From an uncultured archaeon (GTDB lineage Archaea; Aenigmatarchaeota; Aenigmatarchaeia; GW2011-AR5): a stretch of DNA of 34,851 nucleotides. Each line of letters opens with the position of its first letter. Position 1 is the stretch's first letter. The position numbers were made by a program, and so were the translations under genes. Below are positions 4,946 through 32,425 of the stretch, one piece after another. The notes under the pieces are model-generated. The model was not told the origin of the DNA. It saw only the letters and a program-made list of their open reading frames with translations, and did no database searches. Where the stretch lies: assembly GCA_964373695.1 (NCBI GenBank), contig CAYJVT010000009.1, positions 1 to 34,851 of the forward strand, given 5' to 3'.

Positions 4946-7900
4946 ATGGTCTTCGAATACGACTACGACGAGGAGGCGCAGAGGATAAGGATAAACTGCA
5001 TAGGCGCGATATCGGAGACCAGCGTGGAGGACTACGACCTCTGCATGGCCACGACCATAGAGAAGCTCATGGAAGTGAAGAGGGTCGTGAGGGTCGTCCT
5101 GGCCGGCTCAAGGGAATACGAATACGACTTCAACGAGGCCAAGCTGCTGCTCGAGATAGGGTACGCGATAGAGCGCATCATAAAGGAAAGGATAATATCC
5201 ATGAGGAACGTCGCCGCCAGGGAGGACGACATGTGGATACAGCAGCGTTACAGGTTTCTGCAGAATTTTCTCAACAGGCTAAAATACGACCCCATAGAGG
5301 CCTACAAGAGCCTCCTGAGAGAGATAAGGCACAGCAAGATAAAGAAGGAAAAAGAGCCTGATTACGCCTCGAAGATATCCTACCAGCATTATATAAACAA
5401 TTCACTGGAGCCGATAAGGCAGATACTGGAGGAGTGCGAGCTCATACAGATAGCGAAGCCGCAGCTCACAGAAAACAAGAACCGCTCCTTATACAGGAAA
5501 ATATTCCACCCGACGATAAGGCCCAACTTCATCTACACCAGGTACATATCGCTGCCGCCGCCTGACGCGGAGCTCCTGGAGAGGTACAGAATGGGGGATA
5601 CTGACGTGGAGATATACAAGATCAAGGGAAAGCTCAGGAATTTGTATCATGTGATACCCCCCGAATTCAGGCTGGACGAGAACGAATACACGCTCCTCGA
5701 CACAGCAAGGCGCTACCTTGGAAGGCACGAGCCTGTCGAAGGCGAACTTTCGAAACCGGAGAACGTGAGGGAGAACCTTTACAGGATAGGGCTTGACATG
5801 ATAAGGGACATCGCGAACAACAATAACATGCAGCTCAGCGAGAAGAAGCTGGGCAACCTGGCGAAGATACTGACCAGGTACACTGCAGGGCTCGGCATAC
5901 TAGACCTCATACTGCAGGACGACAAGATACAGGACATAGCGGTCAATTCGCCTGTGGGGACGTCGCCGGTCTACATATACCATGCCGACTACCACGAGTG
6001 CGAGACCAATATCGTGCCGAGCCAGGAGGACGCCGAATCGTGGGCCACGAGATTCAGGCTTAGCAGCGGCAGGCCTTTCGACGAGGCCAACCCAGTGCTG
6101 GACACCGAGCTCGAAGTTCCTGGGGGCCGCGCCAGGGTGGCTGCAATAACAAGGACGCTTTCGCCGGACGGGCTTGGATTCTCTTTCAGGCGTCACAGAG
6201 ACAAGCCGTGGACATTCCCCCTCTTCATAAAGAACCGGATGATAGACTCGTTTTCCGCGGGGCTCCTGTGGTTCCTGATAGACGGCTCAAGGACGATGCT
6301 GATAGCAGGGACCAGGTCAAGCGGCAAGACGTCATTCCTGTCGTCGTGCATCGTCCAGATAATGCCGAAAATCAGGATTGTAAGCCTGGAAGACAGCGTT
6401 ACCGGAGACTGCCAGATTATCTACGAAAGGGACGGGAAGATGGAAAAGGGAACCGTTGGCAAACTTATTGATGATGTTATAAAAAAATATGGATGCGAGT
6501 GTGATTTCGGCCGCGATGTCCTAAGAACCAATCCCGAAAAGATAAGGGTTTTTTCAATGCGAAAAGACGGCAAATTTGGACTTTCTGAAGTGAGCGCTTT
6601 CATAAGGCATATGAGCACCAAGGACATATTCGAGGTAACAACACGCATGGGGAAGAAAATAAAGGTCACAGGAGACCACTCGCTTTTTACCTTGGGAAAG
6701 AACGGCGAAATAATGCCGGTAAAGGCTGGAGAACTAAAAATAGACGACTATCTTGTAACGCCCAGAAAACTTCCTTTTGCCGGAGGAAAGAAAGAACATA
6801 TCGATATTTTCGATTATTTGGAGAAAATAAATAACGGGTACTTCACCGGCCGCGGCGTCGAAAAATGCCTCAGAGACAACTGGAATGAGATAAAGAAAAA
6901 CGTCGCCAGATCAAAGAGATTGTGGTGGAAAAGAAAAAACATCATCACCGTAAATTTCGCGAAAAATTTGATTAAAAATGGCTATAATTTTGACAATGAT
7001 ATTTTCTACAAATCGTCCTCCCATGCAAAGCCATTGCCAAGAATCATTCCGCTTACGGATGAAATGATGCAGTTTTTCGGGCTTTGGCTGGCAGACGGAT
7101 GCTACGACAGTCATTCCGTAATAATATCAGTGGTAGACGAATATTCCAGGGCATGTGTCAAAAATATTGCAAGTCAAATTGGAATGAATACTAAGATGCA
7201 TAGCGACGGAATTTCCATTATGATAAACTCAATAACACTGAAAAACCTGATGAAAATAGTGGGCTTCGAAGGAGATGCTTATACAAAAAAAGTTCCATCG
7301 TGGATATATCATCTAGAAAAAGGGAAAAAAGCCTCTTTGCTTCGCGGACTTTTCAGCGGTGACGGATATCTAGGAAAATATGAAGCCTCTATAAGCCTTG
7401 TATCACCAGAACTTATAAAAGACATCCAGACACTTCTTTTGTCACTGGGTATAATGTCCAGAATAAACAAAATGAATGAAAAGGACAAGACTTATTCGTG
7501 CAGGATAGGTACGGTTCATGCCCTAAAGGCATTCAGGGATATCGGGTTCCTTCAGAATGACAGGACAAAGAAGCTCGAAGAAATGTGCAGCAAGATACCA
7601 AGCCACGACAACAGCGATATCATACCGTTCACAGCAGAATACAAGCGAACTATAGGAAAGAGCTGTAAAAATTTCAATTCATGGGATTACATATCCAGAG
7701 GAAACAACATAGGAAGGCAAAAGCTATTGGGCATGGTAAGTGAAATTGAATCCCAAGACATTTCTTCAAGACTTCTCATGCTTGCAGAATCAGACATTTT
7801 CTGGGACCAGATAAGAGAGATAAAAAGGCTGGAAAATCAGGAATGCTATGTTTATGATTTTTCCGTTCCTGAATGTGAAAACTTTGTCTGCGAAAACATC

Positions 7901-8701
7901 CTTGCACATAACACCCTTGAAATTCCCGTTCCGCAGCTGCGAGAGCTGGGGTACAACATAGAGAGGCTGAAGTCGAGAAGCGTAATAACCAACGTGGAGA
8001 CGGAGCTGCCGGCCGAGGAAGGGCTCCGCACCGCACTGCGACTCGGAGACTCCGCGCTGATAGTAGGCGAGGTAAGGAGCAGGGAGGCGATAGCGCTGTA
8101 CGAGGCCATGAGAATAGGCGCCCTGGCCAACCTTGTAGCAGGCACCATCCACGGCGAGAGCGCTTACGGTGTCTTTGACAGGGTCGTAAACGACCTCGGA
8201 GTGCCGCCGACCAGCTTCAAGGCCACTGACATAGTCGTCGTGAACAACATGATAAGGTCCCCGGACGGGCTCCGCTCCTTCAGGAGGACTGTCGAGCTGA
8301 CGGAGATAAGGAAGCACTGGTCAAGCGACCCGGTGAAGGAGGGAGGCTTCGTGAACCTCCTGGAGTATTCTGCAAAGGAGGACAAGCTCAAGCCCACGAA
8401 GACTCTTCTTACAGGCGAGTCGGAAATAATAAACGACATAATGTCGAGGGTCCGTGAATGGAGGGGGAACTGGGACGCAGTATGGGAGAACATAATCATG
8501 AGGCAGAAGATACTGCAGTCCCTTGTAAACTATTCGGACGCTTACAGGAGGCCCGACATTATGGAAGCCCAGGCCGTGATAGAATCCAACTCCATGTTCC
8601 ACATAGCAAGCGCCGACGTCAAGGAAGAAACCGGCTCCATGGACAACAGGCTCATATACGAAAGGTGGCATAACTGGCTCGGAAAAAAAGTTAAGCAGTG
8701 A
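4946..8701 (+). CDS. Type IV pilus/Tad assembly ATPase (CpaF/TadA/FlaI/VirB11 family) with N-terminal extension, split by an intein
   Basis: Walker A GTRSSGKT (nt 6308-6331), Asp box IVSLED|TLE, Walker B LIVGEVR and His box GTIHGES. 1251 aa in total, 745 aa after intein removal. Adjacent to a TadB/C-like gene and pilins. Confidence 0.95.
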   Translation: MVFEYDYDEEAQRIRINCIGAISETSVEDYDLCMATTIEKLMEVKRVVRVVLAGSREYEYDFNEAKLLLEIGYAIERIIKERIISMRNVAAREDDMWIQQRYRFLQNFLNRLKYDPIEAYKSLLREIRHSKIKKEKEPDYASKISYQHYINNSLEPIRQILEECELIQIAKPQLTENKNRSLYRKIFHPTIRPNFIYTRYISLPPPDAELLERYRMGDTDVEIYKIKGKLRNLYHVIPPEFRLDENEYTLLDTARRYLGRHEPVEGELSKPENVRENLYRIGLDMIRDIANNNNMQLSEKKLGNLAKILTRYTAGLGILDLILQDDKIQDIAVNSPVGTSPVYIYHADYHECETNIVPSQEDAESWATRFRLSSGRPFDEANPVLDTELEVPGGRARVAAITRTLSPDGLGFSFRRHRDKPWTFPLFIKNRMIDSFSAGLLWFLIDGSRTMLIAGTRSSGKTSFLSSCIVQIMPKIRIVSLEDSVTGDCQIIYERDGKMEKGTVGKLIDDVIKKYGCECDFGRDVLRTNPEKIRVFSMRKDGKFGLSEVSAFIRHMSTKDIFEVTTRMGKKIKVTGDHSLFTLGKNGEIMPVKAGELKIDDYLVTPRKLPFAGGKKEHIDIFDYLEKINNGYFTGRGVEKCLRDNWNEIKKNVARSKRLWWKRKNIITVNFAKNLIKNGYNFDNDIFYKSSSHAKPLPRIIPLTDEMMQFFGLWLADGCYDSHSVIISVVDEYSRACVKNIASQIGMNTKMHSDGISIMINSITLKNLMKIVGFEGDAYTKKVPSWIYHLEKGKKASLLRGLFSGDGYLGKYEASISLVSPELIKDIQTLLLSLGIMSRINKMNEKDKTYSCRIGTVHALKAFRDIGFLQNDRTKKLEEMCSKIPSHDNSDIIPFTAEYKRTIGKSCKNFNSWDYISRGNNIGRQKLLGMVSEIESQDISSRLLMLAESDIFWDQIREIKRLENQECYVYDFSVPECENFVCENILAHNTLEIPVPQLRELGYNIERLKSRSVITNVETELPAEEGLRTALRLGDSALIVGEVRSREAIALYEAMRIGALANLVAGTIHGESAYGVFDRVVNDLGVPPTSFKATDIVVVNNMIRSPDGLRSFRRTVELTEIRKHWSSDPVKEGGFVNLLEYSAKEDKLKPTKTLLTGESEIINDIMSRVREWRGNWDAVWENIIMRQKILQSLVNYSDAYRRPDIMEAQAVIESNSMFHIASADVKEETGSMDNRLIYERWHNWLGKKVKQ
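6395..7912 (+). mobile_element. Intein (506 aa) with LAGLIDADG homing endonuclease
   Basis: Starts at Ser (SVTGD), ends at ILAHN, +1 Thr. Removal restores IVSLED-TLEIPV. LAGLIDADG-like blocks FFGLWLADG and LRGLFSGDG. DNA is AT-richer than the exteins. Confidence 0.95.
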
Positions 8702-8707
8702 CATAAC

Positions 8708-10663
8708 ATGGAAGACAAAGAGAGGGCCGCCAAGATAAAAAAAATAATATCAAGGGAATACAGAATATACAAGGAGGAGGAGGAGATATTCTCGCTTCCG
8801 AGAACGCTTTACGAGAAAGCGTGCAGGATATCGGCGGCGCTCCTCAACCTGAAACCTGACGCCAAGACCAGGAAGAAGCTTGAGGAAGTAATAGAATTCT
8901 CCCACCTCAAGATAACGCCAGCCGGCGTCTCGTCCCTCACCATACTGTTCGCACTTCTCACCACGATACCGACGACATTACTGATTATACTGTCGCTCTT
9001 CACGCCTTTCAACATTCTGCCATTCGGGTACGGGATGCTTCTCATGCTGATGTCGCTGTTCTTCGTGGTCTACCTCTACAACTACCCGTTCTTCCTGAAG
9101 AGAAGATACGAGTCCGAAGTGAGCTCGGAGATAGTGACGATGATACTCTACATGGCGATGTACATGAGGAACAACCCCAGCCTTGAAGGCGCCATAAAAT
9201 TCGCGGCCGACAACCTCTCAGGGCCGATAGGGCTGGAGCTCAAGAAAATGCTGTGGGACGTGGAGGTCGGCAACTACTTCTCAATGCAGGCGGCGCTCCT
9301 GGACTACACGGAGAAGTGGGCGAAGAACAGGGAGTTCGTGCAGGCCGTGGAGCTTCTTATAACATCAATGAAGCAGGTCGGCGAGAAGCGCATAACGCTA
9401 CTTGACGAGACGGTCAACATAGTCCTCGAGGGCAACAGGGAAAGGGCCAAGCACTTCAACCAGAAGCTGAAGCTGCCTGTCATGGTCGTGCACGCCCTGG
9501 GGGTAATACTTCCCGTCATGGGCCTGGTAATGTTCCCCGTCATATCCGTCTTTCTGGGAATAGAGTCGGCAGTTCTTTTCGTCATATACGACGTGCTGCT
9601 CCCATTGATACTCTACTTCGTCATAATGCGCATATCGGAGCTGAGGCCAGCGACGTTCAGCAAGATAGACATCTCCGAGAATCCGGACGTGCCGCCGATG
9701 GGGAAGATAAAGATTGGTAGCAGGCTGGTTTCAGCGTGGCCGATAGCGGCGCTGAGCGCGATACCATTCATAGGGCTCGGTCTGTTCATCAAGCAGTTCG
9801 AGACGGAGGGGATAATAGCGGGGCTCCTGATGCTATTCGGCGTGGCGTTCTCCATTTCCCTCTACAACATACTCCTTTCCAGGAAGAGAATCGAGGTCAG
9901 GGACAAGACAAGGAAGATAGAAGGCGAATTCGCGGAAGCCCTATTCCAGATGGGGAACCAGGTGTCCTCGGGAAAGCCGATAGAAATATCGATAAAGAAT
10001 TCCATGGAGCGCATCAACAACCTCGAGATAAAGAAATTCTTCGACAAGGCGCTGAACAACATAAAGTCGCTCGGCATGACGTTCCAGCAGGCCTTCTTTG
10101 ACAAGGACTTCGGCGCGATAAGGCTCTACCCGTCGAGGATGATAAAGAACATCATGAGGACGGTAGTGGAGTCAAGCAAGAAGGGGGTCAACGTGGCGTC
10201 GAACGCCATGCTGTCAGTTTCAAGATACCTGAAGGGCATCCACTCGACCCAGGAAGAGGTGAGGGAGGAGCTGAGCGAGACCGTAAACTCGCTGAAATTC
10301 CAGCTCTATTTCCTGTCGCCCATGATATCAGGCATAGTCGTGACCCTGGCCATAATAATAATAAGGATACTGAAGTCGCTGTCCGCCAGCCTCGGCGACT
10401 TCCAGAGCATACAGGTCCCGCTCATAAGCCAGTTCGCCAACATCACCGTGACGCCGTTCCAATTTATAATAGTCGTGGGCACATATATCATAGAAACATG
10501 CGTAATCATCTCCATATTCATAAACAACATAGAGAACGGCGACGACCCGATAGGGCGCATGCACACGACGGGTTACTCGCTCCTGATAGGGTTCATCATG
10601 TTCACCGTGTTCACCATGGTAACGCTGATGGTGTTCGGGCCGCTGATAACGACGCTGGTGTGA
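8708..10663 (+). CDS. Pilus membrane platform protein (TadB/TadC/FlaJ, T2SS-F family, duplicated domains)
   Basis: 651 aa with alternating TM clusters and cytoplasmic domains (NPSLEGAI; QVSSGKPIE). Directly downstream of the ATPase. Confidence 0.9.
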   Translation: MEDKERAAKIKKIISREYRIYKEEEEIFSLPRTLYEKACRISAALLNLKPDAKTRKKLEEVIEFSHLKITPAGVSSLTILFALLTTIPTTLLIILSLFTPFNILPFGYGMLLMLMSLFFVVYLYNYPFFLKRRYESEVSSEIVTMILYMAMYMRNNPSLEGAIKFAADNLSGPIGLELKKMLWDVEVGNYFSMQAALLDYTEKWAKNREFVQAVELLITSMKQVGEKRITLLDETVNIVLEGNRERAKHFNQKLKLPVMVVHALGVILPVMGLVMFPVISVFLGIESAVLFVIYDVLLPLILYFVIMRISELRPATFSKIDISENPDVPPMGKIKIGSRLVSAWPIAALSAIPFIGLGLFIKQFETEGIIAGLLMLFGVAFSISLYNILLSRKRIEVRDKTRKIEGEFAEALFQMGNQVSSGKPIEISIKNSMERINNLEIKKFFDKALNNIKSLGMTFQQAFFDKDFGAIRLYPSRMIKNIMRTVVESSKKGVNVASNAMLSVSRYLKGIHSTQEEVREELSETVNSLKFQLYFLSPMISGIVVTLAIIIIRILKSLSASLGDFQSIQVPLISQFANITVTPFQFIIVVGTYIIETCVIISIFINNIENGDDPIGRMHTTGYSLLIGFIMFTVFTMVTLMVFGPLITTLV

Positions 10664-10667
10664 CGGC

Positions 10668-10940
10668 ATGAAGATGTGTAAAAAACTCCATTTTTTGACA
10701 TCCCAAAAGAACAAAGTTCCTTTGAAGAAAGGGATTTCCGACGCGCTCCTGTGGACCATGATAGGCCTTGCCGTGGCGCTGCTGGCGCTGGCGATACTCA
10801 TAGCGATAGCCGGAAGCCAGACTACCCTGGTGAAGGACGACATAGAGATACAGCGCGAGAGTGTATACACGGCGCCCGACATACAGGAACCGTATAACAA
10901 CTGCGAGGAGGCAGACTTTTCATGGAAAGCCTTGAACTGA
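10668..10940 (+). CDS. Type IV pilin-like protein with class III signal peptide
   Basis: LKKG|ISDALLWTMIGLAVALLALAILIAI. An alternative TTG start at 10722 gives MKKG|I. Confidence 0.8.
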   Translation: MKMCKKLHFLTSQKNKVPLKKGISDALLWTMIGLAVALLALAILIAIAGSQTTLVKDDIEIQRESVYTAPDIQEPYNNCEEADFSWKALN

Positions 10941-11263
10941 AGCCCATATTCTACGTAATATTCGGCATCGTCATAACGATAGTCGTCGGCCTCGTCTTAT
11001 GGAACAAGTTCGCGCCTGACGCCAGCCGGGCGTTCTACAATACGGTAACTGGGCCGGGCGGCCTGTTCGGCCTCGCGCTTGCGGGAAGAAGGAAGAAAGG
11101 GATGGAAATGTCCCTTCTTGTGCTGATAATCGGCTCCGTAATAGCCATCACAGTCATATTCCTTGTCATGGGAGGCTTCATAGGCGAATCGGGCGGCGTG
11201 TCAAGCTCTCTCCGCGACTCGTTGACGGATTTCGGCCTCGGAGCCTTGTCCAATATAGGGTGA
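10922..11263 (+). CDS. Two-unit pilin-like protein with internal class III cleavage motif
   Basis: N-terminal MESLELKPIFYVIFGIVITIVVGLVLW helix, then internal RRKKG|MEMSLLVLIIGSVIAITVIFLVM (nt 11087-11104). Confidence 0.85.
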   Translation: MESLELKPIFYVIFGIVITIVVGLVLWNKFAPDASRAFYNTVTGPGGLFGLALAGRRKKGMEMSLLVLIIGSVIAITVIFLVMGGFIGESGGVSSSLRDSLTDFGLGALSNIG

Positions 11264-12159
11264 TACTCATAGAAATACAGGAAATCATGCCAGCAATAAT
11301 CACGGCAGTGATAGTTCTGTTGATAGTGGTAATCTTTTTCATTCCGAAGGAGCTTCTTGCCAGCAGCTACGGCAATTTTACAGGAAAATTTCTCATAATG
11401 CCCAGGGACACCAATATCGAAGTAAAAGAAACTTATCAGGATGCACAAGGGGGCGTAACAGGCTACAGACTAGAAATCCTAACGAGCCTTTCGTACATAA
11501 ACCCCGAATCCCTGAAGGAGGAAAGCGTCAATGTAGTACCGATAGTCCATTTCAAAGGTGGTTCTGTAAGCGGCACCCCGTTCACCATAACCAAGAATGA
11601 CATGATAAGCGGCGCTGGTAGCGTGCGCCAGACTCTGAATCTTGAGGTTCGAACAAACGAGCCGCCGTATAAAACAGAGCAAAACCCATTCTCCGGCGAG
11701 GTGATGGAAAAGCAGGGGCTCGTCATGAAATCCAGCGAAGGCGGGGACTTCCTGGTGAAGCTGGAGAAGTATGATGACACGCGTGTTACACCATGCGAGT
11801 TAGGATTCCGCATCCAGTGCGGGAACACGACGAAAGCGCTGTATCTTGATGAAAAGAACGACTGCATAAATGACGGCGGCCAATACACATGCTTTGAAAA
11901 TACAGAGGCATGCGACGGCGTCGTGCGTATAGAGATGAACGAGAAACCGGACTGCGACGCCAGGAAGAACGCCATGACAATAACAGTGAAAGAGGGGACA
12001 GAGGGCCCGGTGCAGGAGGAGATATCCATAAGCTTCTGGCGCGACGGAGATGAGAAATGTATTGCCGGGGAGACGGACTACAAGCGCCTCACGGCATTGT
12101 GCGGGAAGGACAGGCTCAGCGGTCTGTACCTTTACAGCTTCCCCATGTTCTATATGTGA
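11260..12159 (+). CDS. Pilin-like membrane-anchored protein with Cys-rich extracellular domain
   Basis: N-terminal helix IEIQEIMPAIITAVIVLLIVVIFF, beta-rich body, 8 Cys in the C-terminal half. Start uncertain (GTG 11260, ATA 11269 or ATG 11287). Confidence 0.85.
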   Translation: MILIEIQEIMPAIITAVIVLLIVVIFFIPKELLASSYGNFTGKFLIMPRDTNIEVKETYQDAQGGVTGYRLEILTSLSYINPESLKEESVNVVPIVHFKGGSVSGTPFTITKNDMISGAGSVRQTLNLEVRTNEPPYKTEQNPFSGEVMEKQGLVMKSSEGGDFLVKLEKYDDTRVTPCELGFRIQCGNTTKALYLDEKNDCINDGGQYTCFENTEACDGVVRIEMNEKPDCDARKNAMTITVKEGTEGPVQEEISISFWRDGDEKCIAGETDYKRLTALCGKDRLSGLYLYSFPMFYM

Positions 12160-12939: not shown

Positions 12940-13083
12940 ATGGAAAAGAAAGCGATAGGAATGGCCGTAGGGTTCGTGATACTTGTAGTCCTGATAGCTC
13001 TTGTCGTGATACTGACGAGCAGGAGCCAGGGCGGGTCAATATCAAACCTCGAAACCGCCCTCGGCATAGTGAGGGGTGTCTAG
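12940..13083 (+). CDS. 47-aa micro-pilin with class III signal peptide (not in ORF track)
   Basis: MEKKA|IGMAVGFVILVVLIALVVILTSRSQGGSISNLETALGIVRGV*, with a GGTG SD upstream. Confidence 0.8.
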   Translation: MEKKAIGMAVGFVILVVLIALVVILTSRSQGGSISNLETALGIVRGV

Positions 13084-13203
13084 ATGCGACTGGAATACAT
13101 CGCAGTCGGGTTCATACTGATGCTGGTAGTGCTCATGGTAGTGATATCAATACTTTCTGGCGTGGCTCCGGGTGTTGAATTCATATTCAGCAAGGTGAAG
13201 TGA
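13084..13203 (+). CDS. 39-aa leaderless micro-pilin-like protein (not in ORF track)
   Basis: MRLEYIAVGFILMLVVLMVVISILSGVAPGVEFIFSKVK*. The ATG directly follows the upstream TAG in frame; GGGGTG SD present. Confidence 0.75.
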   Translation: MRLEYIAVGFILMLVVLMVVISILSGVAPGVEFIFSKVK

Positions 13204-14844
13204 ATGGAGGAAAACACACAGGCAATATTCATTGTCATCAGCCTTCTGTTCGTCCTCATAGGACTGACCTTGGTATCGGCGCTGCTGGCAAGCGCCGACC
13301 CCTATGCTTTCATTGCGACCTCGAACACCGAGAAGCTCAGGAATGCGATGGAGCAGGCATGCGGCGGCCAGAACCAGAAGATAAGCTTCTCATTGCCCCA
13401 GAATGTCCCTGCCATGACTTCGATATTTTCATTCGCAACTTCATGGCTCCTTTATGAGGGCGGCGACCCGCATTACACGCTTTATTATGAGATGTTCCCT
13501 GCCGGCGACGCCATAGGATGGGAGTCGTTCCAGAAGTTCAGGCCAAAGTCCCTTGCGTACATAACTGAAGATGCCGCGAACAAACTCGGCCAGCGCGTAA
13601 GCAGTTCGGATGACGTAGACGACTACATGAAAGACGTGAAGAAAAAGCTCGACGACAAGGAAATCGCCACCGACATCATTATATTGAGGAATGTCATACT
13701 GAACAGTGAATTCCCGCATTACCGGAACTACAGGATTGACCGCAGGGAAAAGACGGGCTCCTCTTCGGACGACTTCGTATCCGGCTTCTTCGGGTTCGGT
13801 GAGTGGAAGCGCGTGGACAAGAATGGAAAGCCGCTTGACGGCGACAATTATTTTGAGTTCATCAACTATGACGCACTGCCTACCGAGGAGAAGACGGCGA
13901 TAAAATACATGCCGTGCGGCGACCATTCGCTCTGCCTGAAGACGCGCTCCGGGGTCTACAGATACGAGCTGCCCAACTGCGAGGCACAGGACATAAAATA
14001 CGTTGCGCTTGCGTACGAGGAAAGGAATGTAGTAAAAGGGCTTGCCACAGGTGCTGAATTAACAGCTATTGCTCTGTATCCTCCTGCCAGGGTCCGCGCC
14101 TTAGCAGTCTCAAAATTTGCCTACAATCTCCTGTCAAAAATACCATGGCTGGGAAAGACAATAATAGTCGCCGGAGCGGCATACGGAACCGACAGCATGA
14201 CGAAATACTTTGTGGCGGCTTTCGCCGGATACAAATCATCGGATTTCAGCATCGCGAGCCCGTGCGCCGCTGAAGAAATGGAGGTAACAATGATGAAATG
14301 CGGTGACATTCCGGACGAATACTCGTGCAACAGGATGGAAAAAATACCTATAATGAAGTTCGACAAGGACGACGGGATACTACCAGAGAACCAATACCGC
14401 GAATATCACTATACATGCACGGAAAAATACAATGAAAACTACGACAGCACTTCATCAAATCCGAATATTTTCTCACTTGAATCCGGCGAAATAAGCAACG
14501 ACCAGTGCCTCCTGGTCAAGGTCACCAAACTACCCGAAGGGTACTGCTGGACGCCCGACCCGTATAAGGAGCTTTCACTCGGAGGCGGCATAGATAACCT
14601 GTTCAGAGAACCCGCAACACAGGCAGTTGCAAGGGGCCTGGGCATCACGCCGGTAAGAGAATTCACTTCCTACGTGTATCAGAATATGGAGGGCGTTTCC
14701 CCTGTGACTCTTCTGCTTCCTTGGGTTGACAATGGATTTTTCATCGACAGGTCAGGCGGCCTTGTATCGTGGGGATGGCCGCAACATAAAGGGGAGAGCA
14801 TACTAGGAGACTTCCTCGGACTTCCAGGAATATTCATTAATTAA
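13204..14844 (+). CDS. Large pilin-like surface protein (546 aa) with internal hydrophobic segment
   Basis: N-terminal helix QAIFIVISLLFVLIGLTLVSALLA, scattered Cys, and an internal Ala/Gly-rich hydrophobic stretch at about nt 14029-14229. Confidence 0.85.
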   Translation: MEENTQAIFIVISLLFVLIGLTLVSALLASADPYAFIATSNTEKLRNAMEQACGGQNQKISFSLPQNVPAMTSIFSFATSWLLYEGGDPHYTLYYEMFPAGDAIGWESFQKFRPKSLAYITEDAANKLGQRVSSSDDVDDYMKDVKKKLDDKEIATDIIILRNVILNSEFPHYRNYRIDRREKTGSSSDDFVSGFFGFGEWKRVDKNGKPLDGDNYFEFINYDALPTEEKTAIKYMPCGDHSLCLKTRSGVYRYELPNCEAQDIKYVALAYEERNVVKGLATGAELTAIALYPPARVRALAVSKFAYNLLSKIPWLGKTIIVAGAAYGTDSMTKYFVAAFAGYKSSDFSIASPCAAEEMEVTMMKCGDIPDEYSCNRMEKIPIMKFDKDDGILPENQYREYHYTCTEKYNENYDSTSSNPNIFSLESGEISNDQCLLVKVTKLPEGYCWTPDPYKELSLGGGIDNLFREPATQAVARGLGITPVREFTSYVYQNMEGVSPVTLLLPWVDNGFFIDRSGGLVSWGWPQHKGESILGDFLGLPGIFIN

Positions 14845-23017: not shown

Positions 23018-24811
23018 TTATACAAAGGCCTTCAGGTTATTCCTTATGACGGCCTTCATCACGTTTTTTCCCGTGTCACTGTCCTTGCTAATCCGTATTA
23101 TGCCTTTCTTTCCGACAGTAGCGGAGAACAAATATTCGTCGCCGACGTAAAAGTTGGCCACGCTGTTCACGAGGCTCTCGTCAAATCTCATGCATATGTA
23201 AGCGCCGGTCTCCTCCACGACAAGCTGGACTTCGCTGCCGAACGTTTCGACCTTCGGCAATACCTCTATCCTCAGCCCCAACTTCTCCTCAAGCTGCTTT
23301 ATGGTTGAGCCGGACTTGCCTATGATGCGAGGTATGACGTCGTTTTCGACGCGCACGACCACCTTCTCATCCCCGGCGATCTCTATTTCAGCATGCCTGT
23401 CGAACTTCGATATCTCGGACATTATGTATTTCTTCGCGAGCCTTCCCATGGGAGACTCCTTCTTCTGGGCCTTTACTGGTATTATGACGTTCTCGTCTCC
23501 GTAAGTATATATCTCGTACTCCAGATTGTTGTTTTCGAAGTTCCTTATCTCGACGACCGGCCTCGCGAGGTCGGCTTCCGTCATGCCGGTGGGCGTCCTT
23601 ACGGTCAGGCTTAGCATGTAGGTCTTCTCTATCTTCCCGTCTTTTATGTATATTATAGTATCCACTATGTGGGGGACGACGCCGAGCTCTATGCGGCTTA
23701 TGAAGCGCTGGACCGCATCGACCGGGTCGGTGGCATGCACGACTCCCAGCATGCCGATGCCTGACAGACGCATGTCAGAGAACACCATGAACTCCTCCGT
23801 CTTCCTCACTTCGTCGAATATGGTGTAATCCGGCCTGACAAGAAGCAGAATGTCAGCGGTGTTCTCGAAGCTCCCCTTGAGCTTCGAATACTGCGTCACC
23901 TCTTTGCCGACCTGGAGGTCCCTCGGAGATTCCATTGTCTTGACTATCTTCCCCCGGGACTCGAAGAATTCGGCCATTGCAGCCGCGAACGTTGACTTGC
24001 CGGAGCCGGGCGCGCCTGCTATCAATACGCCTTCAGCCTTCTTCTCGAGGCGTTCCATGAGCTTTCCAGATATATCATAGTCCGAAAGCGAAAGCTTTGC
24101 GACCGGCCTCACGACTGTCATCTCGACGCCGTCAGAGAAAGGCGGCCTTGCAATAACTATCCTCATGTCGCCGAACTGCACAACGCTCGCGGAATGGCCC
24201 CCGACCTCGATGAACGAATCGCTCTCATAACGCGTCGCATCCATGACTTCCTTTATTATCTCCTCTATCTTCTCGGCAGAAATCGGCTCGTCAGAAAGCC
24301 TGACAAGGGAGGAGTTTCCCGGCGTCCCTCTCTTTGCGACAGGGACAGCGCCTTCCTTGATGTGAAGGCTCATCGTGTCAGGTGTAAGCATCTCAGACAG
24401 CCTGGTTGACTGCTTCTTCTCGTAAGGAGGAAAATATTTCGCGACGACCTTTTCCGCCTCCGCGACCGTCGACTGCACGTAATCAGACGTGAAGAGGATT
24501 GCGTTCTCTTCCCTGGCAATGTCAAGAATAAGAGCGTCTATCCTGCCGTATTTCGCGAGCTGTATTTCTTCCATCGTCTGCCTTCGCCCCATCCTGACGA
24601 GCTTTATCCTGTCGCTCTCCAGGGACCTGAGCCGTTTTATCTCCTCGAGGCCGCGAAATCCGATTTCGCGCCCCTTTGACGCCTGGGCCCTTAGTTCCTC
24701 TATGACGAACTCCGGTATTATTATCTCGGCTTCCTTCATCTCGCCTTTTTCTATCATCCCAGTTATTATTCCGGATATAAGTACGCTCGTATCCGGCACT
24801 ATTTTCTGCAT
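23018..24811 (-). CDS. pinA: PIN-domain ATPase with C-terminal KH domain (PINA, archaeal branch-migration ATPase family)
   Basis: N-terminal PIN (IVPDTSVL), Walker [21 protein letters not shown], and KH GxxG (IIGKSG). GGTGA SD present. Confidence 0.92.
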
Positions 24812-27448: not shown

Positions 27449-27895
27449 TCATCTTTTCTTTATTTTGACCTCGGCGATATCCCCCAGCGTCAATTCAGGC
27501 GTTTTAGCGGAAGTTTTTTTCTCTGTCACGTATTCAGCACCAAGCAGTTTTATGCTCAACACCTTTTCCAGGCGCTTTGCAACCTCATCCGTCGGCCGCA
27601 TGCCTTTTTCGATCCTATGCATAACTGAAGCTGGGACTGAAATTCTCCCTGCAAGCTCCTCAATCGACACACCAAGAGACTTCCTGGCGTCCCTGACTAA
27701 CGATGCGAAGTCCGGATCTATAACATTCTCTTTTATCTCATGCTCGCGGGATTTCCTGGCCGGCAAGGCAACGGACTCCTCCACAATGCTGCCGAATTTT
27801 GCGCATCTCTCGCATACATGGAGCAGCGTGCCCTCAACCCGAGCTTTTTTCAGTCCCTTAAAAGAGCCGCACATCTCGCACTCGATATAAATCAC
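27449..27895 (-). CDS. mbf1: Archaeal multiprotein bridging factor aMBF1 (zinc ribbon plus HTH)
   Basis: CEMCG...VEG..LHVCERCAKFG ribbon, Cro-type HTH (ARKSLGVSIEELA..MHRIEKG) and C-terminal TLGDI. Confidence 0.95.
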   Translation of the reverse strand: MIYIECEMCGSFKGLKKARVEGTLLHVCERCAKFGSIVEESVALPARKSREHEIKENVIDPDFASLVRDARKSLGVSIEELAGRISVPASVMHRIEKGMRPTDEVAKRLEKVLSIKLLGAEYVTEKKTSAKTPELTLGDIAEVKIKKR

Positions 27896-27961
27896 CAGGA
27901 TAATAATTATATTCCTGCAAGAATTTTAAACCTTTATCAAGAAGTTATAATAAGTGTATCT

Positions 27962-30900
27962 ATGAAGCGCGAGGAAGAGGAAAAGATAAAGGAATACTGG
28001 AAAAAGAAGAAGGTATACGACAAGCTGAAGAAACGACAGGGCAAGAAATTCTACTTCCTAGACGGGCCGCCTTATGCCACGGGATACATCCATATGGGGA
28101 CCGCGTGGAACAAGGTTCTGAAGGACGCATACATAAGATTCTGGAGGATGAAGGGGCGCGACGTGTGGGACAGACCGGGATACGACACCCACGGCCTTCC
28201 AATAGAAAACAAGGTGGAGAAGGAGCTCGGGATAAAATCCAAGTCAGACATAGAAAGGCTCGGAGTGGAGAAATTCATCCTTGCATGCCGGAATTTCGCC
28301 ACGAAATTCATAGAAATAATGAACAAACAGTTCGAAGATTTGGGAGTATGGATGGACTGGAAAAATCCCTACCTCACCCTGGAAAACAGCTACATAGAAG
28401 GCGCCTGGGCCACTTTCAAGACATCGTTCGAAAAGGGACTGCTGTACAAAGGCCTTTATCCCGTCCACGTATGCTCGCACTGTGTTGATCCTAATTCAAC
28501 TATTCTCGTAGAGGGCGGTACAAGGAAAATAAAGGAACTGAAAAATTGCTGGCGGCATAATAAAGTTCTATCAGTGGACACCGAATCCGGAGAGCTTACT
28601 ATAACAAAACCCCTAGGGTACATGGAACATGAAGAAGACGCGTTTGTTCTTGAAACAAAAACCGGGAAAAGGCTTACAGCTTCGCCAGACCATCCATTCT
28701 GGACACAACAAGGGTGGGTACAGCTTTCAAAGCTGAATCCGGGCGCTAAAGTTGCTGTGTATAATAATGTAGAAAGCAGGTTGCCGAAAATTACTGAAAA
28801 AGGCAGTGTAATACTTAACGAAAACCGCATTAGATCTTTTATAGAAAGACTGGAGAAGCCAATGTTGGCAGCCAAAAACAATACGTATAATGACATGACA
28901 AGCAGTTCAAAAAATAAAGTCAAAGACTACGTTTTCGGCCTGAGAAGTGCAGGATTTTCTTATAATGAAATTGTAAATAAAGTCAGATCTAAATACAAAG
29001 TTAAAGTAGCAAAATCATGGATAGCAAAAATACTCAAGACATCTACAAAGACTAGAAACGATTCAATAGTTTCAGAGCTGAAGGAGAAAAGCTTATTGCC
29101 TCTTTATAGCAAATCCTCGGCGGCATTTATTTTATCGCGGATTGCTGGACATATTTTTGGGGATGGGTCAATTGCCATAAAATTCTCTAAAAACCGCAAA
29201 TTCCCTGTTTTCTACACATCATTCTGCGGAAAAGAAGAGGATCTTGAAGAAATTCGTAAAGATTTGAATATTCTAGGGTTTGAATGTACCGAGATTTCTA
29301 CCACCGAAACCAAATCTGTAGTAAATAACCGCATAATAAACGGCTTTACGACATCCATGAGGTGTAACTCATCGGCTTTAGCGGTTTTGCTTATTTCTCT
29401 GGGCTGCCCAATGGGGCGGAAAACGGAAAAGAAAACATATGTGCCGAAATGGATAAAATCCAATAAGAAGTTAACAAGAGACTTTTTGGCGTCCTATTTC
29501 GGAAGCGAACTGCAGATAATAGGAACCATGGCATATGAAAAAGGGTTCAATTGCCTAAGGCTTTATTTAACAAAAGAGAGGCACCTGGAAAAAAATGGGC
29601 TGGAATTTGCGAAAGATGTGTGTGAACTTATAAAAAAATTTGGCGTAACAACATCCCAAATAAAAGCAAAAAGGACTAAAGTAAATGAAAAAGACAAGTC
29701 AAAAATTACAATAAGCATAGACTGTAATGATGATAATTTAATCAGATTTACGAGATTTTTAGGCTACGAATACTGCAAATATAGAAAAACAAGGGCTGCA
29801 TATGTTTTGAGCTATCTTCTCAACAAGAAATCTTTAGAAAAGGAGTACAGAAGAAAGAAGAATAGCATCCTGAAACTAAGGCAGTCTAAAGTTCCTTGCA
29901 GCAAAATTGCCATAAAATTGGGATTGCCGAAACTTTATGTTAGGCATGTCGTTTATGGAAAAGCTAAAAATATAATAGTATCTAAATACATTTCTCCGTT
30001 CAACGAATGGCTGAAAAAGTCGGCAGATAGCCTCAGAGATGGATTAATATGGGATGAAATAGAGACCATAAAATATTTAGGAAAGCGAAAAGTTTGTGAT
30101 ATTGCAGTAGAAACGCATCATAACTTTATAACTAACGGCTTCTTAACGCATAATTGCGAGACTGCCGTCGCATACAACGAGATAGAATACGCAAAGGTGT
30201 CCGACCCTTCCGTATACGTCAAATTCAAGGTGCACGGAAAGAAGGACGAGTTCATAGTTATATGGACAACGACCCCATGGACTCTGCCGTCAAACACCGG
30301 AGTCATGGCGAAACCAGATGCCGACTACGTGAAGATACAGAGCGGCGGGATGAAACTTATACTCGCAAAGGAGCTACTGGAAACGGTAGCGAAAAAGGTG
30401 GGTATAGAAGACTATGATATCATTGAAATATTCAAAGGCCGGAAACTTGAAGGCCTCAAGTACGACCATCCCCTTTCCGACGAGTTCGAGTTCCAGAAAA
30501 AGCTTTCCGGAGCCCACAGGGTCATCCTTTCAGACCAATATGTAACGCTTGACACAGGCACCGGCCTGGTTCACACGGCCCCGGGCCACGGCCAGGAAGA
30601 CTATAAGGTGGGAATAGAGAACGGCCTTCCTGTAGTATCTCCCGTGAAGATGAACGGGACTTACAACGACGAGTGCGGCAAGTTTGCCGGGATATTCGTC
30701 AAGCATGCGGACAAGCTCATAATAAAGAACCTGCGGGAGAAGGGCCTGCTCCTCCGCGAAGAAACCATAACGCACGACTACCCGCAGTGCTGGAGATGCA
30801 ACTCGCTGCTGCTGCAGCTTTCCGTCCCGCAGTGGTTCTTCCGTGTCACGGAGATAAGGGAAAAGCTTATCGAGGAGAACGAAAAAGTCAGCTGGTATCC

Positions 30901-32425
30901 TTCCTGGGCGAAGCAGCGCTTCAGGAACTGGCTGGAAAGCCTGGGCGACTGGCCGATATCAAGGCAGAGATATTGGGGCATACCTCTGCCTATATGGACA
31001 TGCAAAAAGTGCGATAAAGTCAGGGTGGTTGGCAGCGCAAAGGAGCTTGGGAAGGCCGTGAAGGACCTGCACAGGCCCTATATAGACGAAGTGAAGCTGA
31101 AATGCGCGTGCGGCTCGCAGATGGAGCGGATAAAGGACGTTCTTGACGTGTGGTTCGACTCCGGCCTTGCGGCATGGGCATCCATAGGTTATCCCAAGAA
31201 CAAGAAGCTTTTCAAAAGCCTCTGGAAGACAGACCTGGAGATAGAGGGCCCGGACCAGATAAGGGGATGGTGGAACTCACAGCTGATAACAAGCGTCATA
31301 ACATTCGGCGAATCCCCTTTCACCAGCATACTTTTCCATGGGTTCGTCCTGGACGCCCACGGCGTGAAGATGAGCAAATCCAAGGGCAACATAGTCAATC
31401 CGGAGGAAGTCGTCAATAAATACGGGACCGACGTCCTGAGGATGTACCTTCTCTCGTCACCTCCGTGGGAGGACTTCTACTTCAAGTGGATAGACGTCGA
31501 GAACGTGTCGAAGTCTTTCGTAGTGATAGAAAACACGTTCAACTTCGTGAAGACTTATGCGTCAGGAAAAGGCTTGGAGGGCAATATGCTCCCCGAGGAC
31601 AGGTGGATAATCTCGAGGATGAACTCCTTGACAAAGTCATTCGCCGAAAACATGGAATCCTACAACATACACAAGGCGTCCCAGGAGCTCGTAGATTTCA
31701 TAGTGAACGACTTCTCCAGATGGTACATAAAGATAATCAGGAACCGTGTATGGCCGTCCTACGGTGGAGAGGATAAGAAAGGCGCCGTTTTCGCGCTGAG
31801 AACGGTGTCGAAGAACATCCTCACGTTGATGGCGCCTATCTGCCCGTTCGTTTCGGAGAAGCTGAATATAGAGATATTCGGCGATGAGAGCGTGCACCTG
31901 AAGCTTCTTCCGAAACCCGACAAGGTCGACTCCAAAGCAGAGTCGCAGATGGCGGTGGCAAGGGAAATAGTCGAGACCTGCAATTCCATAAGAAAGGAGA
32001 ACAGCCTCAAGCTGAAATGGCCAATGGAAAGCATATGGATAGAGCCCAAAGACTCGGAAAATGTCGGCGATGCCGTGAAAACTTTCGGGGATGTCATCAT
32101 TGACATGGCGAACGCCGGCAAGATAGAAAAATGCCACGGATATAAAAAAGAATTTTCCGGCGGCACGGTGCACATGAGCAAGGAAGTGATGAAGAACGAG
32201 GCGCTTTTGAGGGAGCTTCTCAGGGCGGTGCAGGAAAAACGCAAGAATGACGGAATGAACGTCTCGGACAAGATAACCCTTTACATAGACGGCGACATGA
32301 AGAAATTCGAGAAGCAGATAAAAGAGAAGGTATCTGCCGGAAAGATCGTGTTCAAAAAGCTCCACGACGGAGAAGAAGTGGAGTTCGAAGACATGAAGCT
32401 GAAGTTTCTAGTTGAGCGTGTATAA
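27962..32425 (+). CDS. ileS: Isoleucine--tRNA ligase, split by an intein
   Basis: DGPPYATGYIHMGT (HIGH-like), GTGLVHTAPGHG, DWPISRQRYWG, DQIRGW and KMSKS. 929 aa after intein removal. Start at ATG 27962, not the track's 27740. Confidence 0.97.
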   Translation: MKREEEEKIKEYWKKKKVYDKLKKRQGKKFYFLDGPPYATGYIHMGTAWNKVLKDAYIRFWRMKGRDVWDRPGYDTHGLPIENKVEKELGIKSKSDIERLGVEKFILACRNFATKFIEIMNKQFEDLGVWMDWKNPYLTLENSYIEGAWATFKTSFEKGLLYKGLYPVHVCSHCVDPNSTILVEGGTRKIKELKNCWRHNKVLSVDTESGELTITKPLGYMEHEEDAFVLETKTGKRLTASPDHPFWTQQGWVQLSKLNPGAKVAVYNNVESRLPKITEKGSVILNENRIRSFIERLEKPMLAAKNNTYNDMTSSSKNKVKDYVFGLRSAGFSYNEIVNKVRSKYKVKVAKSWIAKILKTSTKTRNDSIVSELKEKSLLPLYSKSSAAFILSRIAGHIFGDGSIAIKFSKNRKFPVFYTSFCGKEEDLEEIRKDLNILGFECTEISTTETKSVVNNRIINGFTTSMRCNSSALAVLLISLGCPMGRKTEKKTYVPKWIKSNKKLTRDFLASYFGSELQIIGTMAYEKGFNCLRLYLTKERHLEKNGLEFAKDVCELIKKFGVTTSQIKAKRTKVNEKDKSKITISIDCNDDNLIRFTRFLGYEYCKYRKTRAAYVLSYLLNKKSLEKEYRRKKNSILKLRQSKVPCSKIAIKLGLPKLYVRHVVYGKAKNIIVSKYISPFNEWLKKSADSLRDGLIWDEIETIKYLGKRKVCDIAVETHHNFITNGFLTHNCETAVAYNEIEYAKVSDPSVYVKFKVHGKKDEFIVIWTTTPWTLPSNTGVMAKPDADYVKIQSGGMKLILAKELLETVAKKVGIEDYDIIEIFKGRKLEGLKYDHPLSDEFEFQKKLSGAHRVILSDQYVTLDTGTGLVHTAPGHGQEDYKVGIENGLPVVSPVKMNGTYNDECGKFAGIFVKHADKLIIKNLREKGLLLREETITHDYPQCWRCNSLLLQLSVPQWFFRVTEIREKLIEENEKVSWYPSWAKQRFRNWLESLGDWPISRQRYWGIPLPIWTCKKCDKVRVVGSAKELGKAVKDLHRPYIDEVKLKCACGSQMERIKDVLDVWFDSGLAAWASIGYPKNKKLFKSLWKTDLEIEGPDQIRGWWNSQLITSVITFGESPFTSILFHGFVLDAHGVKMSKSKGNIVNPEEVVNKYGTDVLRMYLLSSPPWEDFYFKWIDVENVSKSFVVIENTFNFVKTYASGKGLEGNMLPEDRWIISRMNSLTKSFAENMESYNIHKASQELVDFIVNDFSRWYIKIIRNRVWPSYGGEDKKGAVFALRTVSKNILTLMAPICPFVSEKLNIEIFGDESVHLKLLPKPDKVDSKAESQMAVAREIVETCNSIRKENSLKLKWPMESIWIEPKDSENVGDAVKTFGDVIIDMANAGKIEKCHGYKKEFSGGTVHMSKEVMKNEALLRELLRAVQEKRKNDGMNVSDKITLYIDGDMKKFEKQIKEKVSAGKIVFKKLHDGEEVEFEDMKLKFLVERV
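28481..30154 (+). mobile_element. Intein (558 aa) with LAGLIDADG-type endonuclease and extra HTH-like segments
   Basis: Starts at Cys (CVDPNS), ends at FLTHN, +1 Cys. Removal restores CSH-CETAVA. Contains TASPDHPF block B, RIAGHIFGDG and FLASYFGSEL. DNA is strongly AT-rich. Confidence 0.95.

Follow-up and report, generated by a model that had tools for sequence, protein, structure and literature searches.

Prepilin peptidases are regarded as trimmers of short N-terminal leaders, and to our knowledge every described class III signal peptidase site lies in such a leader. A 113-aa open reading frame (ORF) from an uncultured archaeon of the Candidatus Aenigmatarchaeota (DPANN) raises the question of whether these enzymes may also act in the middle of a protein. 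The ORF carries two very small pilin-like units in one frame, and a prepilin-type motif, RRKKG/ME (the slash marks the putative cleavage point here and below), stands at the joint between them. Is it a precursor of separate subunits, an uncleaved membrane protein, or a pair of overlapping cistrons? The window, meaning the whole stretch of 34,851 nt that was analysed, comes from a genome of ~1.02 Mb in 60 contigs that is 91% complete.

The two-unit ORF and its locus

The 113-aa ORF adjoins the genes for a secretion ATPase and a TadC/FlaJ-type platform protein in a type IV filament locus of conserved synteny. The gene order is ATPase, platform, a 90-aa prepilin-like gene, the 113-aa ORF and then genes with N-terminal hydrophobic helices. 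The features of the locus and the parts of the ORF are as follows.

4946..8701, + strand: secretion ATPase (T2SSE), split by a LAGLIDADG intein
8708..10663, + strand: TadC/FlaJ-type platform protein (T2SSF)
10668..10940, + strand: 90-aa prepilin-like gene with leader ...PLKKG/ISDALLW, overlapping the start of the 113-aa ORF
10905..10911, + strand: Shine-Dalgarno motif GAGGAGG, 10 nt upstream of the ATG of the 113-aa ORF
10922..11263, + strand: whole two-unit ORF, 113 aa plus stop, with orthologues and contigs of three runs
Residues 1-60: unit 1, comprising a transmembrane (TM) helix, a polar loop, a GGLFGLALAG-containing segment and RRKKG
Residues 1-7: N-tail MESLELK
10943..11002, + strand: TM helix of unit 1, P8-W27, a 20-residue uncharged run inside AF2 helix 7-43
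Residues 28-40: polar loop, net charge +1
11042..11086, + strand: H2 segment T41-G55 (TVTGPGGLFGLALAG, including GGLFGLALAG), uncharged and rich in Gly, Ala and Pro; AF2 short helix 45-53
11087..11101, + strand: basic junction RRKKG, R56-G60, putative internal class III signal peptidase site with a predicted cut after G60
11102..11260, + strand: unit 2, M61-G113, predicted mature 53-aa pilin-like product, homologous to stand-alone M..KKG proteins of 48-70 aa
11108-11185, + strand: TM helix of unit 2, M63-G88, a 26-residue uncharged run; AF2 helix 63-87
Residues 89-113: C-terminal tail, net charge -2
11287..12159, + strand: ~290-aa pilin-like protein; conserved neighbour on the downstream side, which served as synteny anchor

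The 113-aa ORF is a real gene. Its Shine-Dalgarno motif is of the type used by its neighbours, with GGAGGTGA-type motifs at similar spacing before other genes of the operon (13084, 13204 and 17105). Logan contigs from runs X1 and X2, both possible sources of this DNA, and from X4 span the ORF with identical sequence and no indels, and orthologues occur at 87% and at 42-53% identity. The joint divides the single frame at 10922..11263 (+) into MESLELKPIFYVIFGIVITIVVGLVLWNKFAPDASRAFYNTVTGPGGLFGLALAGRRKKG (60 aa) and MEMSLLVLIIGSVIAITVIFLVMGGFIGESGGVSSSLRDSLTDFGLGALSNIG (53 aa), exactly the two units with RRKKG between them that the sequence-only reading had described. An AF2 model of the protein, built on a 16-row alignment, contains helices at residues 7-43, 45-53, 63-87 and 91-112 and places the junction in a loop; because its mean pLDDT is 68, it serves as a rough guide only.

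Unit 2 shares two features with class III substrates, namely Lys or Arg at -2 with Gly or Ala at -1 (RRKKG/M) and a hydrophobic helix of ~20 residues at or near +1. Archaeal prepilin-like peptidases depend critically on the -1 Gly of the substrate, and basic residues at -2 and -3 matter as well (PMC4187195). A short N-terminal leader is found solely on stand-alone unit-2 homologues in other genera; in the 113-aa ORF the site is at residue 60, behind a TM helix. For reference, archaellin leaders measure 6-12 aa (PMC4187195).

Several other features of the window were recorded. The 90-aa prepilin (10668-10940) has a 22-residue leader, MKMCKKLHFLTSQKNKVPLKKG/, versus 3-5 residues in its relatives (MKG/, MSKG/, MPKKA/), and the stop of its gene overlaps the start of the 113-aa ORF by 19 nt. 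Further downstream, at 12940-13260, pilin-like ORFs of 47, 39 and 546 aa share one frame and are separated by single stops, each followed immediately by an ATG (..VRGV-stop-MRLEY.. and ..SKVK-stop-MEENT..). This arrangement also occurs in the sister genome (L020, L045) and looks like another fused-or-split joint of tiny pilin units. Inteins are present in both the pilus ATPase (4946-8701) and a class I aminoacyl-tRNA synthetase (27740-32425, 1561 aa), and the one in the ATPase includes a LAGLIDADG homing endonuclease. On the minus strand, 23018-24811 encodes a fusion of PIN, T2SSE-like ATPase and KH domains of the archaea-specific MJ1533-type family, which is unlinked to secretion loci (PMC4858521).

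Fused and split relatives

Relatives were read from the small ORFs just upstream of the ~290-aa anchor gene, and were therefore selected by synteny and not by motif. Fused two-unit ORFs of 87-130 aa were found in 16 genomes from 8 genera of the same GTDB family (G000, G001, G002, G063, G067, G033, G066, G062, G028, G009, G015, G024, G006, G008, G029 and G007). Apart from the 87% sister, these orthologues share 18-34% identity, and in their alignment near-invariance is limited to columns K59 and G60. [KR][GA] directly precedes the unit 2 helix in all 16. Full-length two-unit matches in two further genomes, G064 and G023, bring the total to at least 18 genomes in 8 genera.

A sequence homology search returned the 113-aa protein and two close relatives only, and the rest were reached by an exhaustive profile search. 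A HMMER profile of the 16 fused ORFs, run against 1.84 billion representatives, matched 80 proteins: 56 with two units, one with three (P0038), one dubious (P0080) and 22 short forms of 48-70 aa that match the unit-2 half only. No useful protein names were found among the matches looked up. The 56 two-unit matches, the 113-aa protein and a close relative make up the 58 fused sequences used for the counts below. Full-length two-unit matches were obtained only in the family of the target genome; elsewhere in the phylum there are weak matches to the KKG-plus-helix half alone, at the N-termini of various ORFs. P0038, a 231-aa protein from a 965-bp ENA contig, seems to hold three units in one ORF, with sites MPKG/, RLKG/ and SRKG/.

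The junction is sharply defined in the 58 fused sequences. Position -1 is Gly in 57 (with one Ala) and position -2 is Lys in 57, while Lys or Arg occupies -3 in 51 and -4 in 43; position +1 is mostly I, M, T, L, V or F. Because the HMMER profile itself contained K-G, the synteny-selected set is the cleaner evidence. As a control, internal TM starts with at least two K/R upstream were collected from multi-TM ORFs of the same genome: [KR]G lies within 10 residues of 23 of these 132 basic starts (17%), and [KR][KR]G of 7 (5%). Judged from these alignments, the K-G junction motif is more than chance. Codon choice at the junction varies across the 16 fused genes: GGG, GGC, GGT and GGA all occur for the -1 Gly, and both AAA and AAG for the Lys. 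The use of all four Gly codons indicates selection on the residues and not on an RNA motif.

The stand-alone forms of unit 2 reveal what the internal motif corresponds to. Of the 22 short forms, 19 start with M-x(0-17)-[KR][GA] in register with the internal site, with leaders such as MKKG/, MARKKG/ and MRRKKG/, and the mature start I-x-[IL]-T-T is common to short and fused forms. Genomes with split units agree: unit 2 begins MVIMKG/LSTV in G019 (where unit 1 is a separate protein of 49 aa), MTAKKG/VSSL in G011 and G025, and MGKG/LSFM in G040. In G014, G026 and G031 there are three small genes, the last of which starts (M)KKG/IV[IV][TS]T. Where unit 2 is a separate gene in these relatives, it begins with M-x(0-8)-[KR]KG, a canonical class III signal peptide, so the internal KKG corresponds by homology to a prepilin site at the N-terminus. 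The N-terminal class III consensus of the genome itself is M-K-(K)-G, with 54 pattern matches versus 6 in reversed sequence. Its carriers include a 754-aa M23 protein of the same window (MKKG/A) and a pilin at the end of contig C2 (MKKG/MELP), which has the same KKG/ME as the internal site. The proposal that RRKKG/ME is a prepilin-type site is thereby supported, both by homology to the MKKG/ of stand-alone unit-2 genes and by agreement with the consensus of the genome. It had been stated that the idea would fail if the units were always separate genes or if the motif were unconserved; fused homologues exist, and the motif is kept in them.

The number of units also varies. Some genera have three small units, A, B and C, the last two being paralogues of each other. 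In G007, G029 and G008 (L005, L008 and L010, respectively), A is fused to B and C is separate, and all three are separate in G026, G031 and G014 (L004, L006 and L007, respectively). The genus of the 113-aa ORF has only A, fused to a C-like unit. In G008, a stand-alone unit-2-like gene (L010:1492-1647) starts directly at MELTAKTL, without a KG leader, and resembles the mature N-terminus found elsewhere; a leader is thus not always needed.

To place the fused and split states on a phylogeny, a maximum likelihood tree of the A24 peptidase from 25 genomes was used as a stand-in for the species tree; genomes in which no small ORF was found were excluded. The fused/split label needs about four changes on this tree, at least two of them forced by strongly supported branches, and the two states have therefore interconverted repeatedly. 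This history suggests that fused and split states are equivalent in function, and cleavage of the fused form would be the simplest way to explain that.

Topology and the proposed processing

The two units of the ORF appear to be related. When the profiles of unit 1 and unit 2 were compared (hhalign), the probability was 94% (E 1e-7; reversed control 3%), and the register was kept from the Gly across the TM helix. The ORF would be best explained as a fusion of two neighbouring pilin-like membrane proteins, both very small and distant paralogues of each other. The sequence-only reading had called them two pilins, and this stands insofar as the units are of like architecture. As a label, however, it is too strong, because unit 1 of the 113-aa ORF starts MESLELKP, without a [KR]G leader, and would keep a basic cytoplasmic tail after the predicted cut. 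An M-K-G start of its own is present on unit 1 in 28 of the 58 fused proteins. It is doubtful that unit 1 assembles as a pilin, and it more likely stays in the membrane after the predicted cut.

Charge distribution in the 58 fused sequences sets the junction apart from the other segments. It has a mean of 4.4 K+R and a mean net charge of +3.6, whereas the N-tail (1.07 and 0.0), the loop after the first TM helix (1.64 and +0.2) and the C-tail (1.45 and -0.5) are near neutral. The junction is therefore predicted to be cytoplasmic and the unit 2 helix to run N-in/C-out. Two models of unit 1 were compared, one with two spans in the whole protein (N-out, H2 at the inner face) and one with three (N-in, H2 crossing back). 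H2 averages 12.4 residues in the family (range 7-19), with 17% Gly and 7% Pro; this short, Gly/Pro-rich composition and the K+R bias (3.55 vs 2.41) would mildly favour two spans. The M-K-G start in nearly half of the fused proteins and the homology of the two units would favour three. The positive-inside rule puts the junction inside in both models, and the span number bears on the identity of unit 1, not on access of the peptidase to the internal site. It had been cautioned that the site must face the cytoplasm and that GGLFGLALAG would have to re-enter the membrane for this; this caution carries less weight than it was given, as the junction is predicted inside either way.

The peptidase that such a site calls for is present. 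The genome has one Peptidase_A24 gene (G000:C22:9740-10528), which scores 31 bits against PF01478 when the genome is searched and 27.8 bits as an ORF (cut-off 26.5), and an A24 peptidase occurs in 41 of 44 genomes of the family. Twenty of these enzymes were aligned, and all have the catalytic residues D19 (WDLKTTEVPDE) and D81 (G-x-A-D-A-W). A complex prediction of the A24 peptidase with the precursor scored 0.00, which is no evidence either way.

Based on these data, we consider it moderately probable that the precursor is cut at KKG/M and frees a 53-aa, Flp-sized pilin-like subunit. The precursor would insert with its strongly basic junction in the cytoplasm and the unit 2 helix oriented N-in/C-out, like that of any prepilin. 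The single A24 class III signal peptidase (PibD/EppA-like) would then cut after G60 (RRKKG/MEM). The freed unit 2, one hydrophobic helix with a short tail and about the size of a Flp/Tad pilin, would then be available to the ATPase and platform whose genes lie just upstream. Unit 1, produced in a 1:1 ratio with it, would remain in the membrane and amount to a membrane-anchored leader of 60 residues. We infer three of these steps: the cut itself, what becomes of unit 1, and the use of unit 2 in a filament. The locus, with its ATPase, its platform and several other prepilin-like genes, counts in favour of cleavage. Counted against it are the position of the site behind 60 residues that include a TM helix, the failure of the unit-2 family to match any Pfam or NCBIfam pilin model, the leaderless gene of G008, the ATG at +1 in the genus of the 113-aa ORF and the only moderate pLDDT of the AF2 model. 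Neither a tandem pilin precursor nor an internal class III site is described in the archaeal type IV filament (T4F) censuses (PMC4858521, PMC13705601) or in the other literature searched. The broader proposition, that class III signal peptidases act on internal sites of small membrane polyproteins and that tandem pilus-subunit precursors of one Aenigmatarchaeota family, with two units or perhaps three as in P0038, are thereby resolved into stoichiometric pilin-like pieces, is given an even chance.

The main rival holds that the protein is never cut and is a stable accessory subunit of the pilus machine, a small polytopic protein with two or three spans in which KKG, as the relic of a leader, would serve only as a positive-inside topology signal with a helix-breaking Gly. 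Its helical hairpin architecture with a basic cytoplasmic loop would suit such a role, no recognised pilin family is present, and internal class III cleavage would be without precedent in the two archaeal T4F censuses (PMC4858521, PMC13705601). A topology signal, however, requires charge and not Gly, yet the Gly is kept in 57 of 58 junctions, compared with [KR]G in 17% of comparable loops. The repeated switching between fused and split states is also easier if both yield the same products, and an uncleaved protein is rated unlikely. A joining of two genes by sequencing or assembly error has a negligible probability, given identical, indel-free contigs from several runs and the recurrence of the fusion in 18 or more genomes of 8 genera. 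It is highly improbable that the tail of unit 1 is a miniature C-terminal sorting signal for a protein of the exosortase/archaeosortase family, acting instead of or beside the prepilin peptidase. A PF09721 ORF does lie ~5 kb from the A24 gene (G000:C22:4625-5074, 182-aa frame, 46 bits, above the cut-off), P-G or P opens H2 in many relatives, and in split forms H2 and the basic cluster form the extreme C-terminus. This idea was ranked low because H2 is too short (a mean of 12 residues versus 19-24 in clear C-terminal anchors of the same genome) and internal in the fused forms; moreover, a shared signature motif was not found, and the invariant K-G followed by a helix is unaccounted for. Candidate C-terminal anchors of 19-24 hydrophobic residues with a basic tail were observed on contig C18.

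Another rival is internal translation initiation. Here, unit 2 would come mainly from a start of its own, at ATG 11102 or 11108 or, in some relatives, at a Met between -3 and -8; the Shine-Dalgarno role would fall to the purine-rich Arg/Lys/Gly codons, and the long ORF would be two in-frame overlapping cistrons. ATG or GTG stands at +1 in 5 of the 16 fused genes, including the 113-aa ORF, and two others have one at +2. In G033 (MRKG), G024 (MNMKG), G063 (MPRHKKG) and G066 (MNSAKKKG), a Met located at -3 to -8 would restore a normal leader, AGGAGG lies 9 nt ahead of the internal ATG in G001, and Shine-Dalgarno motifs are in use in the source organism. By contrast, G009 has no in-frame ATG, GTG or TTG from -8 to +8, and in G015, G062 and G067 the first starts come only at +5, +6 or +8, within the mature hydrophobic N-terminus. 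The internal ATG of the 113-aa ORF itself follows AGAAGGAAGAAAGGG, in which the Shine-Dalgarno motif is weak (AAGGAAG vs GAGGAGG), and initiation at +1 would leave the helix without the basic leader by which it is oriented. Furthermore, the conservation of K-G at the residue level is unexplained unless the peptidase still acts. The ATG at +1 behind purine-rich codons means that an internal start is allowed in the genus of the 113-aa ORF, but the mechanism is not general, as the family has no start codon at a constant position in the junction. The caution that RRKKG codons might serve internal initiation may thus apply to this genus and not to the family, as the start-free G009 illustrates. Internal initiation may contribute in this genus and would leave the family-wide pattern unexplained; as the main source of unit 2, and with the long ORF read as two cistrons, it is judged improbable.

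Relation to known pilin systems

Comparison of the cleaved-precursor reading with described systems shows both likenesses and departures. In Pfam and NCBIfam, neither the ORF, nor unit 2, nor any of 19 stand-alone homologues produced more than chance TM matches, and Pilin_N (PF07790) and Flp_Fap (PF04964) were unmatched. A PDB profile search likewise gave chance TM matches only, and the ESM Atlas yielded unnamed clusters of 53-56 aa at a score of 0.76, below the useful level. Because no Pfam or NCBIfam pilin model matches, unit 2 is called a pilin from its motif and context alone.

The archaeal class III proteins, which comprise pilins, archaellins and Sulfolobus sugar-binding proteins processed by PibD/EppA/FlaK (PMC4187195), offer one close parallel. 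They have in common with unit 2 the basic -2 and -3, the Gly at -1, the ~20-residue helix from +1, the ATPase and platform neighbours, the two-Asp A24 peptidase and, in the stand-alone homologues, the short leader. Their leader is short and N-terminal, whereas the putative site here is at residue 60 behind a whole membrane unit, and unit 2 has no sequence match to the described archaeal pilin families.

Bacterial Flp/Tad pilins (PMC11067988, PMC10710030) resemble the predicted mature unit 2 in size, with 53 aa for the 113-aa ORF and 40-59 aa across the family, and in consisting of an alpha-1 helix with a short tail and no beta-sheet head domain; for unit 2, AF2 gives a helix-turn-helix. The Caulobacter Tad pilin likewise has no globular domain (PMC11067988, PMC10710030), and the Tad lineage is thought to be archaeal in origin (PMC6668835). 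The G/XXXXEY motif of Flp pilins is missing, however: MEMSLL follows the Gly in the 113-aa ORF and I-x-[IL]-T-T in the family, with no E-Y at +5/+6. Flp pilins are also single-unit precursors, and no significant match to Pfam Flp_Fap was obtained.

Two further systems involve joined proteins. In modular (bimodular) type IV pilins such as Streptococcus sanguinis PilB (PMC8179133), a pilin module is likewise joined to a second module; there, the pilin carries an additional functional domain at its C-terminus that stays attached, whereas here tandem pilin-like units have a peptidase-type site between them. ArlC/D/E of the archaellum (PMC4858521, PMC13705601) are likewise adjacent T4F genes that are fused or split by lineage, but these are soluble or cytoplasmic accessory proteins and their joint has no cleavage site.

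If the proposed processing is true, no earlier case of type IV filament subunits made by way of a polyprotein would be known. A prepilin site that is conserved and correctly oriented in mid-protein would widen the substrate architecture of A24 peptidases, and a tandem precursor would offer a simple route to fixed subunit stoichiometry. The coexistence of fused and split forms would show how very small pilin genes join and separate in evolution. Pilin finders such as FlaFind and PilFind scan only the first few dozen residues, and motif finders restricted to the N-terminus would miss subunits of this kind.

A recent census found T4F systems to be common across most archaeal phyla, with the Asgard and DPANN groups as exceptions (PMC13705601). 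The pilus cluster described here is probably the organism's means of host contact, and the finding points to divergent, very small subunits that escape standard models.
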